This document shows, piece by piece, positions 17,408 to 63,077 of a stretch of 64,000 nt of DNA (position 1 is the first letter of the stretch; each line of letters starts with the position of its first letter). Made by a program: the position numbers and the translations under genes. The DNA is from a virus (Duplodnaviria; Caudoviricetes), in IMG/VR virus record IMGVR_UViG_3300028048_000039, positions 128,001-192,000 of that record; one strand, 5' to 3'. A model generated the notes under the pieces. The model worked only from the letters and a program-made list of their open reading frames with translations. It was not told the origin of the DNA and made no database searches.

Positions 17408-19189
17408 ATGGCAAATGTATTTACAAAATCAGAAGAGTTTAAGTCAGAATACTCTTGCGCAGTAGTGAAGGTAGGAGAACTTACACCTATTGAAGGTTCT
17501 GACTTTCTTGCTAAGACACTCGTCCTTGGAACACAAATAGTGGTAAGGCGTGATTTTATTAAACCTGGTGACACAATGATATATTGTGCAAACGAGACAC
17601 AGTTGAATGAGAGATTCCTTTCTGTTAATAATCTTTTTGAGATTAGTTGCAGGGAGAAGAACGCTAATGCTGAAGAGGTTGCCAAGATTATGGAAGAATA
17701 TGCTCCAATTAAGGCAAAGGCTGATAAGATGCGTAATGAAGCGAAGAACATTAAAGGTGTTATGGAAAGCAAGACCAATTTTTCCAACAAACTTACAAAG
17801 AAAGCAGACAAGTTGGAAAAGAAACTGTCTGAAATGGAGTTAGGCACTGCAGAATATGAAACGCTCAAGGCAGACATTGCGGACAAAAGAAAATCTGCTG
17901 AGAAAGCCCTTTCCGAAGCGATGTCACTTACTACCAAATATACTAATCTTAAGAAGGACATTGAGGACCTTGTAAATTCAGGAAAGCATATTGTTGATGA
18001 AGCGAAGAAGCATTGCGGATTCTTTAACAAGTATGGCAGGGTGCGTTGTATTACACTGAAAGGAACCCCATCATTCGGTTTCTTGTTTTCCCCTGAAGAA
18101 CTCTTCAAGTTTGATAACACCGTCACTATGGAAGATATTGAGGATTGTATAGGCCAGGAGTTTGATACTATTAATGGAGAACTGTTTGTTAAGGTATTTA
18201 TTCCGCCAATGCCGAAAGAAAGCAGAAGAGACAATGCAAACAAGGCACAGAAGAAGATAAAGAGATTTGACAGGATGATTGATGGAGAATTCTTCTTCCA
18301 CTATGACACCACACAGTTGGAAAAGACTATTAATCAGTTCAAGCCAGAAGATGTCATTGATGTATCAATTAAGATTCACGGCACATCATCCATTTTTGCA
18401 AAGGTAAAAGTCAAGAAACCTATTCATTGGAAGACAATTCTCTTTAGTCCTTGGAACTTTGCCATGAGACTATTCCATCTTCCTATGGTTAAGACATATA
18501 AGGTTGAGTATGGCCCAGTTTATTCTTCAAGGACAGTAATCAAGAACCGCTATATTAATTCAAGCACAAATGGTGGCTATTATAATGCAGATATTTGGAC
18601 TGAATACGGAGATATTATCTATCCTTATCTTGATGAAGGTATGACTGTTTATGGTGAAATTTTTGGGTATATCACAGAAAGTGATAAACCAATACAGAAG
18701 ACTTATGATTACGGGTGCGACAAGGGTGAAAACAAAATTATGTTCTACCGAGTGACCAAAGATGAAGATGGCAATAAAAGAGAATGGGAAGTTCAGGAAG
18801 TATTTGAATGGACAAAAGATTTGATTGAAAGGATGAAAGCCAACAATGATGAAAATTGGAAGAAAATACACCCGATTGATATCCTTTATCATGGTACATT
18901 GGAAGACCTCTACCCGGACATTGATACTGAAAATCATTGGCACGAGAATGTCCTTGAGAAATTGAAAAATGACAAGGAACATTTTGGAATGGAAGAAGAT
19001 GAACCGCTTTGTATTTATCATCAGGTTCCGAGGGAAGGAATATGTGTAAGAAAATATGCTGACCCAATTAGAGAATGCTATAAGTTGAAGACAATAAGCT
19101 TTAAGTTAGGGGAAGCGATTCGCTATGACTCCAATGATGTGGATATAGAAGCAGTAGAAGGTTATTCAGAAGACCCTAACGAAAGTTAG
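17408..19189 (+). CDS. ATP-dependent RNA ligase (Rnl2/DRB0094-like) with coiled-coil insertion
   Basis: N-terminal 'LTPIEGSDFL', motif I KIHGTS, 'YGEIFG', 'REGIC', 'YKLK'. Confidence 0.8.
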   Translation: MANVFTKSEEFKSEYSCAVVKVGELTPIEGSDFLAKTLVLGTQIVVRRDFIKPGDTMIYCANETQLNERFLSVNNLFEISCREKNANAEEVAKIMEEYAPIKAKADKMRNEAKNIKGVMESKTNFSNKLTKKADKLEKKLSEMELGTAEYETLKADIADKRKSAEKALSEAMSLTTKYTNLKKDIEDLVNSGKHIVDEAKKHCGFFNKYGRVRCITLKGTPSFGFLFSPEELFKFDNTVTMEDIEDCIGQEFDTINGELFVKVFIPPMPKESRRDNANKAQKKIKRFDRMIDGEFFFHYDTTQLEKTINQFKPEDVIDVSIKIHGTSSIFAKVKVKKPIHWKTILFSPWNFAMRLFHLPMVKTYKVEYGPVYSSRTVIKNRYINSSTNGGYYNADIWTEYGDIIYPYLDEGMTVYGEIFGYITESDKPIQKTYDYGCDKGENKIMFYRVTKDEDGNKREWEVQEVFEWTKDLIERMKANNDENWKKIHPIDILYHGTLEDLYPDIDTENHWHENVLEKLKNDKEHFGMEEDEPLCIYHQVPREGICVRKYADPIRECYKLKTISFKLGEAIRYDSNDVDIEAVEGYSEDPNES

Positions 19190-60622: not shown

Positions 60623-61579
60623 TTATGATAAATGTCCTTCCAGTTCTTTTGCCTTATCAAGATACCATTGTTCTTTTCTAATATCCTGTTCAGCACTTTC
60701 CCCTGGCTTTGTTCCTGCTCTCATTCTATACTTGAAAGCATTTAGCTTACAGAAGGAAATTGTCTCATGCACACCAAACAACCTTGTCATCATATCAATT
60801 ACTTCCATGTCGTAGTTGTTGTAGTGCTTTGGGTGATTAACAAACTCGTACTTAGGAAGCTCATCACTTTCAGTAGCTATTGGCTCTTTCGCTATAGGCT
60901 CAGAAGCTTCTGGTGGACATGTATTATCCCAGGCCATTGCTGGACGGTTCTTCTTTGTGTAGAAATTGGACAGGTCTTCAGGAATATCATCCACACCGAC
61001 GATAGCCTTCGTTGCATTATCCAGGGCTGTCTTTGCCTGATATATATCATGTATATCTTCTATCTCACTGCCAGCGGAAGACTTGCATTCATTTCTATGC
61101 TTATTTATTTCTTCAGCCATCTTCCTGGAATTCTCGTATATCTTTGTTGGGACATTCTTAAAGTTCTCCTTAGCGATATTTATTCTGCTTTCACGAACCC
61201 CATCTATTCCGGAGGCTGGGTTCTCCTTATTAACAGCTTCCCTGGATTCACGTACATCATCTGGGTTATAACCACCGACAAACGGCGTTGGTTTTGGCTT
61301 ACTATCCATAGAATCCTTAATACTGTCCTGACGCAAGTCACACGGACTGTTCCTCCTCATATCGTCAATCATACCGGTCTCAGCGAAAACCCTAACCTTA
61401 CGGCCATCCTCGTCGAAGTAAGCTACCTCTTCAAGGTCTTCCTTAGGAAGTTCATTCTTTATGTTCTGAAGAACCTCAGGGGTTGTATGAATCTTGCAGG
61501 AACTAACTTTATCAGCAAGGTTTTCTTTTTTGAATGCATTCTTTGCTTTCTCTTCCAAATCTTTAATCTTAATCTTCAT
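60623..61579 (-). CDS. Protein with C-terminal DUF3310 (T7 gp1.7/SaV-like nucleotide kinase) domain
   Basis: 'VNHPKHYN...IDMM...FCKLNAFKYR.RAG.K....QDI.K..WYL'. Confidence 0.75.
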   Translation of the reverse strand: MKIKIKDLEEKAKNAFKKENLADKVSSCKIHTTPEVLQNIKNELPKEDLEEVAYFDEDGRKVRVFAETGMIDDMRRNSPCDLRQDSIKDSMDSKPKPTPFVGGYNPDDVRESREAVNKENPASGIDGVRESRINIAKENFKNVPTKIYENSRKMAEEINKHRNECKSSAGSEIEDIHDIYQAKTALDNATKAIVGVDDIPEDLSNFYTKKNRPAMAWDNTCPPEASEPIAKEPIATESDELPKYEFVNHPKHYNNYDMEVIDMMTRLFGVHETISFCKLNAFKYRMRAGTKPGESAEQDIRKEQWYLDKAKELEGHLS

Positions 61580-62685: not shown

Positions 62686-62754
62686 AACTATCATTTCCTG
62701 GAAAAGATTTTTCATTGCGCAACGAAATTGCGTAGCTAACTAGCTCTGTTATAA

Positions 62755-63040
62755 TAAAAAAACCCCGGAAACCACGAGAAGCTTCCGGGGAGGCACGATG
62801 TAAGTAAGGTAAACAGGAAACGTTCTCTGCCATTTTTGACCAAGAGGGCCGGGACTAGCAAAACCCATTGATGTTAGTAATTGTTAAACGTATTAAAACA
62901 ATTGCTGCACGTTTCCTTAACTTTGGTCCCAGAACCAGTTTCACCCAACTCTGGGACAATGAGTAGAGGACAGCAAAACCGGGTTGCCCGGCAAAAAGGA
63001 GGTGTTTGGGAGGTTGCCGTCCTCAGAATACCTTTAAGTA
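62755..63040 (-). ncRNA. Candidate ~285-nt multi-domain ncRNA with an anti-SD-like loop
   Basis: Own -33/-7 promoter (63046-63076) and terminator (62755-62790); three helical domains whose G-U pairs only work on the minus strand. Confidence 0.65.
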
Positions 63041-63077
63041 CAATGTAAATATACAAAAACTTTTTTAAAAAACAAAA

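Follow-up and report, generated by a model that had tools for sequence, protein, structure and literature searches.

The jumbo phage record IMGVR_UViG_3300028048_000039 encodes a real structured RNA of approximately 285 nt, probably abundant, which lies between a promoter and a terminator of its own and exposes a C/U-rich loop complementary to the Shine-Dalgarno (SD) leader common to one block of phage genes. The best-supported mechanism is that this RNA probably serves as a translational switch for the whole block of approximately 25–50 genes. At close to an even chance, we read it as a trans-acting antisense sRNA, encoded by the phage and built from a seed plus a scaffold, a reading that we favour over a decoy of the 16S rRNA.

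The record comprises 344,580 bp (93% complete according to IMG/VR), of which bases 128001–192000 form the window, the stretch of 64,000 nucleotides analysed here; positions given below are window positions unless stated otherwise. Near-identical DNA comes mainly from bovine, sheep and goat gut (rumen-type) metagenomes, and a Prevotella or Segatella of the rumen is the probable host. The promoters of the phage are of the Bacteroidota type, with TTTG located approximately 19 nt before TAtaTTTG (logo of 73 genome-wide TTGTATAT sites), and most of its genes have no SD site. We also tried to time this promoter class through the functions of the genes behind TTGTATAT promoters, which was dropped as the PHROG matches were uninformative. 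In Bacteroidota SD sites are rarely used and the anti-SD is occluded by bS21, bS18 and bS6, rpsU and rpsR being documented as SD-led host genes (PMC7797042). Because SD sites are so seldom used in these bacteria, an antisense RNA directed against them would have few off-targets among host mRNAs. Neither a bS21 gene nor an RpoN gene was found in the phage genome.

An RNA gene with its own promoter and terminator

The features of the RNA gene are the following, in the order in which they are transcribed.

63046..63076, minus strand: promoter, TTTG (63076–63073), 19 nt, then TATATTTA (63053–63046), with TTTTTG ahead of it; TTTG / TAnnTTTG type
62756..63040, minus strand: whole ncRNA, ~285 nt, as indicated by fold z-score, metatranscriptome contig and second-lineage homologue; the 5' end is an estimate (63035–63041)
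63034–63029 with 62811–62806, minus strand: long-range helix closing the three domains (MFE fold)
62966..63024, minus strand: domain 1, 11-bp stem (63024–63014/62976–62966) around a loop and an inner hairpin
62993..63013, minus strand: anti-SD loop of 21 nt, with CCUCC at 63013–63009 and 63002–62998, AACACCUCCUUU at 63006–62995 and ACCUCCUUUUU at 63003–62993
62992–62978, minus strand: inner hairpin GCCGGG/CCCGGU, inside domain 1
62926..62957, minus strand: domain 2, 13-bp hairpin including four G-U pairs, followed by CAAAG
62815..62917, minus strand: domain 3, multibranch, helix AGGAAACGU/ACGUUUCCU (62917–62909/62823–62815) and GCAGCAA junction (62908–62902)
62789..62796, minus strand: third anti-SD element GUGCCUCC, with CCUCC at 62793–62789, partly overlapping the terminator stem
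62756..62790, minus strand: intrinsic terminator, 11-bp stem (62790–62763), 6-nt loop and U7 run

A first reading of this DNA from the sequence only had proposed a non-coding RNA running from promoter to terminator, and this was borne out, since a Bacteroidota-type promoter and an intrinsic terminator flank the region. Sites resembling TTTTTGTATAT with one mismatch allowed number 22 in the window, against 5.2 expected, and 15 of these 22 are exact. The terminator is likewise present at the equivalent place in L041, a contig of a second phage lineage described below. The Rfam search which had been suggested matched no known family: Rfam 15 gave no gathering-level match in the window, the best match on the ncRNA under permissive settings (E up to 10) reached 25.7 bits against a threshold of 85, which is noise, and the homologues in L041, L042, L090, L092, L096 and L003 returned only the neighbouring tRNAs.

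Transcription is suggested by the bovine metatranscriptome X5, in which a contig with a depth of 94 matches positions 62799–63035 and nothing else at the locus. Contigs on the sigma gene and on the upstream gene have depths of 3–8 in the same metatranscriptome, making the ncRNA contig about 10–30 times deeper; these depths are per contig and not from reads, DNA carry-over is possible, and the difference is therefore a hint and not proof. The X5 contig carries a single difference, an A-to-G change at 62914 also found in the DNA variant L039, by which an A-U pair in the closing helix of domain 3 becomes G-U. A further 152 unrelated letters are joined to this contig at 63035, and may represent a chimera that marks the 5' end, which is a guess. 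In a second RNA run, X4, contigs cover both flanking genes and none covers the ncRNA, a contig gap that carries no weight either way.

The minimum free energy (MFE) fold of the RNA has −96.1 kcal/mol (z = −4.25; none of 200 shuffles folds as well). Every helix that had been described is present on the minus strand and is reproduced by this fold, to which we add the long-range helix closing the three domains and the third CCUCC-containing element. Two further features were considered and rejected: a tRNA-like ACCA end after domain 2, as a second copy in the genome has UUCAAAG at this place, and an alternative helix between CAGCAA and the 3' side of the domain 1 stem, which is not conserved in L041. 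A variant in the DNA run X3 carries a 26-nt insertion at 62892, inside domain 3, which repeats the adjacent sequence and looks like a tandem duplication.

Domains 2 and 3 belong to a family of phage RNAs

Homologues of the RNA were obtained through protein-cluster look-ups of the two neighbouring genes. Other routes did not lead to relatives: blastn of the region against the INPHARED phages gave no match, and single-protein locus searches in IMG/VR with both neighbouring genes gave none. The pattern CCTCC-N2-8-AACACCTCCTTT had 26 matches in IMG/VR, all apparently chance or the antisense of Gly-rich coding sequence, an exact domain 3 21-mer found nothing in IMG/VR or JGI metagenomes, and a gapped domain 3 pattern found only unrelated sequences in both, near-identical records seeming to be masked in the collections scanned by sequence pattern.

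The closest relatives are near-identical variants (L035–L039), which differ at few positions, all compatible with the fold. In a partial variant, L040, the hairpin of domain 2 is rewritten, with two pairs changed on both sides, three carrying compatible one-sided changes and two left open. Further comparisons came from a second lineage (L041–L043 and L099–L104, including one contig of approximately 350 kb), the sigma factor of which is 49% identical to that of the focal phage. Its gene order is identical, with the upstream gene or tRNAs followed by promoter, RNA, terminator, palindrome, two sigma54-type promoters, sigma gene and DUF3310 gene, and its RNA adopts the same three-domain fold (z = −5.3). 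As MAFFT and RNAalifold misaligned domains 1 and 2 when applied to the whole RNA, these domains were compared by eye and by separate folds. A covariance model (R1) was built on domain 3 of both lineages.

Model R1 detected a second copy of domain 3 in the genome of the focal phage itself, at approximately 83.55 kb (39.6 bits, E 1.8e-6), and weak matches in syntenic places in three further lineages, represented by L092/L095 (E 0.005), L096 (E 0.015) and L003 (E 0.02). It missed an element in L090 that was chosen by eye and carries a long insert. The covariation that had been looked for among homologues was present in the closing helix of domain 3, in addition to the compensatory changes in the hairpin of domain 2: in an alignment fitted to model R1, all 88 cells of the closing helix are paired (100%) and two-sided changes occur at five of the eight pairs, a result that none of 500 shuffles matches. 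The NNCAGCAA junction lies 3' of the 5' strand of this helix in every family member. Domain 3 RNAs adjoin tRNA clusters or sit within them, and the L090 element directly follows a tRNA. Judging from these comparisons, domain 3, with its closing helix and CAGCAA junction, is the conserved core of a modular and unnamed RNA family, in which the conserved scaffold is joined to differing 5' domains; at least five phage lineages are represented. Since domain 3 occurs in other phages without an anti-SD, and again in the second copy, the ancestral job of this RNA would have been something else.

The second copy (L229:4092-4420; genome 83,292–83,620, plus strand, outside the window) lies inside a tRNA cluster behind a consensus promoter, with a fold z-score of −3.5. 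It comprises a structured, GC-richer stretch of approximately 250 nt that matches nothing in Rfam, a hairpin of 13 bp followed by CAAAG, and the domain 3 copy, which ends in a U run abutting the next tRNA. In the second lineage, domain 2 (L041:4241-4300 and L042:1570-1653) resembles an acceptor-type stem plus T-arm, and in L041 it carries a T-arm-like GCAGG-UUGAACU-CCUGC close to that of the neighbouring tRNA. At 14 of 16 positions (compared by eye) this T-arm is identical to the one in the adjacent phage tRNA, which suggests descent from a tRNA gene. In the distant relative L003 (6840–7990), a promoter and a closely packed series of tRNAs and tRNA-like RNAs come after the upstream-gene homologue; this array, with the weak domain 3-like match (E 0.02) in it, stands in the place of a domain 1 RNA.

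Domain 1 exposes an anti-SD loop

Domain 1 is found only in the focal phage and in the second lineage and, as judged from this distribution, its CCUCC loop is a lineage-specific add-on. The predicted mean probability of the loop being unpaired is 0.95 in the focal phage and 0.99 in the second lineage. In the latter a different closing stem, of 6 bp, encloses AACUCCUUUUU, followed by the inner hairpin and a U/A-rich strand. This inner hairpin differs at four of six positions with pairing kept throughout, and lies directly 3' of CUCCUUUUU, so that both lineages share a single-stranded CUCCUUUUU-G immediately 5' of a covarying hairpin. CUCCUUUUU is invariant within each of the two lineages, including among 95%-identical second-lineage variants which differ at 19 other positions. 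Conservation of the loop thus held in part: CUCCUUUUU is kept unpaired in two lineages, whereas the first and third CCUCC, and the ACC of the second, are specific to the focal phage, the third element having lost a U in L040 and being absent in L041.

The number of CCUCC motifs has little meaning in itself. Three CCTCC within 286 nt are not rare, as 15 such clusters exist genome-wide, and the clustering was dropped as a statistic for this reason; the weight is therefore placed on accessibility, conservation and complementarity and not on motif count.

The loop is complementary to the leaders of one gene island

The sequence-only reading had suggested that the CCUCC elements could pair with GGAGG sites of the phage's own genes, and duplex energies and an 11-nt leader match both agree with this predicted pairing. 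Sites of the form GGAGG-N4-9-ATG are concentrated on the minus strand at genome positions 190–210 kb, directly upstream of the ncRNA, which holds 53 of the 130 in the genome. The genes of this island lie behind sigma54-type promoters and have a common leader ending in TTAAAAAAGGAGGTACATTATG. ACCUCCUUUUU of the loop is complementary to AAAAAGGAGGU in this leader over 11 contiguous base pairs, and the third element GUGCCUCC is complementary to GGAGGUAC, also in the leader, where it pairs in a cofold with a representative leader. On the basis of a crude gene call, a predicted duplex energy of −12 kcal/mol or better with the loop is reached by 17 of 26 genes in the island and by 13 of 339 outside it. 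Compared with a typical 16S tail, the loop gains 1.4 kcal/mol on average, since its U5 tract, where the 16S has UUUCU, fits the A-run of the leader.

Perfect SD sites are confined to this island and to one smaller cluster (17 sites, 13.8–23.1 kb of the window, plus strand), and the homologous islands of related phages have weak SD sites or none. The sigma54 islands are homologous in three lineages, which share a TGTYTAAC...TTAAAA leader; for most island leaders of the second lineage, pairing with the loop is poor, with energies of about −3 to −8 kcal/mol.

Several other observations concern the sigma54-type promoters. Two such −24/−12 promoters lie before the sigma70-family gene of the phage (62602–62685, minus strand), and in three related lineages of jumbo phages promoters of this type stand at the head of an island of small genes spanning 20 kb (L099:428-9815; G001:132.8–152.3 kb). 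A 918-aa protein encoded at genome positions 237–239 kb contains two weak Sigma54_activat-like AAA+ stretches. The palindrome TACGCAAT...TTGCGCA (62716–62735) lies between the terminator and the sigma54 promoters, a place conserved in the second lineage, and TACGCAGTTGCG boxes resembling it occur in the island. Other genes of the window encode a DUF2828 (TROVE-related) protein (783–2414), an RNA ligase homologue (17408–19189) and, downstream of the sigma gene, a DUF3310 / nucleotide-kinase-like protein (60623–61579).

Anti-SD content follows SD strength

Comparison of the three lineages showed the following combinations of island leaders and RNA.

G001 (361 kb, complete): island without SD, AAGGAGG-N-ATG 6 against 8 in the control; RNA with domain 3 only
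L099 type: AAAGAGA leaders, two perfect AAAAAGGAG sites in 20 kb; RNA with one CUCCUUUUU
Focal phage: perfect SD sites; RNA with two to three CCUCC

The anti-SD content of the RNA rises with the strength of the SD sites over the three lineages, as expected if seed and SD sites cooperate, although three points are not a statistic. This parallel gain fits both an antisense RNA and a decoy.

As an antisense sRNA, the molecule would work as follows. Domains 2 and 3, that is, the hairpin followed by the multibranch domain with its covarying closing helix and CAGCAA junction, would form the scaffold, part of a family that recurs, mostly next to tRNA genes, in related jumbo phages. A permanently single-stranded, C/U-rich seed would be displayed by the 5' domain. 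This putative seed, ACCUCCUUUUU, aided by the second and perhaps by the third CCUCC, would pair in vivo with AAAAAGGAGGU(AC) of the near-identical island leaders, and such pairing would cover the SD site. Covering the SD would in turn block or time translation of the whole gene class, possibly triggering its decay; we infer both the direction of this effect, repression, and its timing, and it may be either a shut-off or a delay. Several points speak against the antisense reading: domain 1 is present in two lineages only, so that its conservation is shallow in depth; the first and third CCUCC are not conserved; most second-lineage leaders pair poorly with the loop; the core occurs elsewhere without an anti-SD; and the AAC identity to the 16S rRNA is superfluous for antisense pairing.

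Alternative functions

The main competing explanation, which we consider less likely but worth weighing, is that the function resides in the domain 2–3 core and is unrelated to SD sites, with a processing, stability or protein-binding element associated with tRNA operons as candidates. In that case, the C/U-rich loop would be incidental or would serve as a site for a pyrimidine-preferring protein such as S1. This is consistent with the presence of domain 3 without domain 1 in the tRNA-abutting second copy, with its occurrence in L092/L095, L096 and L003 and directly after a tRNA in L090, with the near identity of the T-arm-like element of L041 to that of the neighbouring tRNA, and with CCTCC clusters being no rarity in the genome. 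However, this explanation does not account for a loop that remains unpaired and does not vary within either lineage, for its 11-nt match to the island leader, or for the increase of anti-SD content with SD strength across three lineages.

The RNA could instead mimic the 3' tail of 16S rRNA, which we regard as improbable. According to this explanation AACACCUCCUUU would titrate bS21, bS18, bS6 or another tail-binding factor, as a consequence of which the anti-SD would be exposed on new ribosomes, to the advantage of the SD-led phage island; in a variant with the same result, the seed would silence the few SD-led host genes, such as rpsR or rpsU. The identity itself, which the sequence-only reading had pointed out, is real: the 12-mer AACACCTCCTTT occurs once in the 345-kb genome and matches the end of Bacteroidota 16S genes at 12 of 12 positions, and a scan with GCGGCTGGAACACCTCCTTT returned overwhelmingly Bacteroidota records, Segatella among them. 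Moreover, both lineages keep the 5' AAC, which antisense pairing does not need, and this is the single feature that argues for mimicry. Occlusion by bS21, bS18 and bS6 is documented, as are rpsU and rpsR as SD-led genes (PMC7797042), and a phage without a bS21 of its own, with an island of perfect SD sites in such a host, needs these to be read somehow. Against this, L041, L099 and L102 carry AAC-UCCUUUUU only, with the ACC of the core lost. The structural setting differs as well: the 16S tail is free at its 3' end and comes after helix 45, but the motif sits approximately 240 nt short of the 3' end of the RNA, in an internal loop that precedes a hairpin. By eye, the sequence flanking the 12-mer on both sides showed no additional 16S likeness, and U5 replaces UUUCU exactly where the island leader has extra A's. 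The related proposal of a decoy for anti-SD-binding proteins is weakened by the same loss of the tail sequence in the second lineage and by the same difference in structural context.

It had further been suggested that the RNA could be a Y-RNA-like partner of the DUF2828/vWA (TROVE-like) protein of the phage, since such a protein is encoded and the RNA of one lineage has a tRNA-like element, as do bacterial YrlA RNAs. We found no support for this idea and consider it very unlikely, as the DUF2828 gene is located approximately 60 kb away, the conserved synteny is with the sigma gene and tRNAs and not with DUF2828, and neither the RNA nor its homologues matched YrlA or Y RNAs under permissive thresholds, the sole YrlA hint (E 0.39) lying elsewhere in L003.

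Least credible of all, and barely worth retaining, is that there is no independent RNA here and that the region serves the upstream gene as 3' UTR, serves the sigma gene as leader, or encodes a small protein. An open frame of 60 codons (62874–63056) does overlap it. However, this frame starts with a TTG within the promoter motif, has no ATG, is not kept as an ORF in L041 and lies where substitutions are compensatory at the RNA level. The ncRNA also has a consensus promoter of its own, past the stop codon of the upstream gene, and its strong terminator lies ahead of the sigma54 promoters of the sigma gene.

Implications

Bacteroidota are the textbook example of bacteria which retain the anti-SD without using SD sites. 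Here, a phage of such an SD-ignoring host has placed perfect SD sites on one promoter class, and encodes a probably abundant RNA which displays the matching anti-SD. The RNA may be half of an SD/anti-SD circuit made by the phage, acting either as an antisense master switch or as a decoy or silencer which strips bS21/bS18-type occlusion, a broader proposal to which we give somewhat less than even chances. If true, the phage would steer translation through a channel barely used by its host. The system offers a handle on two questions, namely whether ribosomes of Bacteroidota can be induced to read SD sites, and when, and how jumbo phages switch classes of genes post-transcriptionally. What would be new is the setting, that is, a phage-encoded RNA with a predicted regulon of one block sharing one leader, in a host phylum which occludes its own anti-SD (PMC7797042), together with the modular RNA family, which had no name. 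Recognition of this family also helps to annotate unexplained intergenic regions near phage tRNA clusters.

Comparison with known systems

The RNAs called species 1 and 2 of phage T4 are stable, have no known role and are encoded within or next to phage tRNA clusters. The family described here is like them, by description alone, in being encoded within or beside phage tRNA clusters, and differs from them in its defined domain 3 core and, for the focal copy, in having its own promoter and terminator. As a family it shows a covarying closing helix and a NNCAGCAA junction in syntenic places in several lineages, the distant matches having E-values of only 0.005–0.02. Modularity and, in one lineage, a tRNA-like element are also features of YrlA (Rfam RF02553); unlike in YrlA, there is no model match, no adjacent Ro/TROVE gene and no Ro-binding stem identified.

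With the 3' tail of Bacteroidota 16S rRNA the focal RNA shares the 12 consecutive bases of AACACCUCCUUU. In the tail these are not internal and do not precede a hairpin, and in the second lineage the identity shrinks to AAC-UCCUUU, so that neither the tail sequence among homologues nor the structural context is that of a 16S mimic.

The closest analogy, one of function only, is the RegB endoribonuclease of phage T4, which cuts GGAG in the SD of early mRNAs (PMC1702504). Class-wide post-transcriptional silencing through the SD sequence is the outcome that we propose here as well; RegB, however, is a protein nuclease helped by S1, while the recogniser in the present case would be an antisense RNA.

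In terms of mechanism, the proposed antisense RNA is best compared with RsaE / RoxS and the RNAIII-type sRNAs of S. aureus, in which C-rich single-stranded motifs pair with G-rich SD regions (PMC6158497, PMC8216469). Like these, it carries several exposed C/U-rich motifs on a structured RNA that ends in a terminator; in RsaE, RoxS and RNAIII such motifs pair with the ribosome binding sites of many mRNAs and Hfq is not needed. The phage RNA matches them neither in sequence nor in structure and is not a member of their family. It also differs in being encoded by a phage, in a system of the Bacteroidota type that makes no other use of SD sites, in having a predicted regulon of one phage gene block with a single leader, and in a scaffold common to other phage RNAs. 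With these sRNAs in mind, the features expected of an anti-SD sRNA were found in the phage RNA: a promoter and a terminator of its own, a single-stranded C-rich seed conserved in two lineages, and complementarity to the ribosome binding sites of a defined set of genes.
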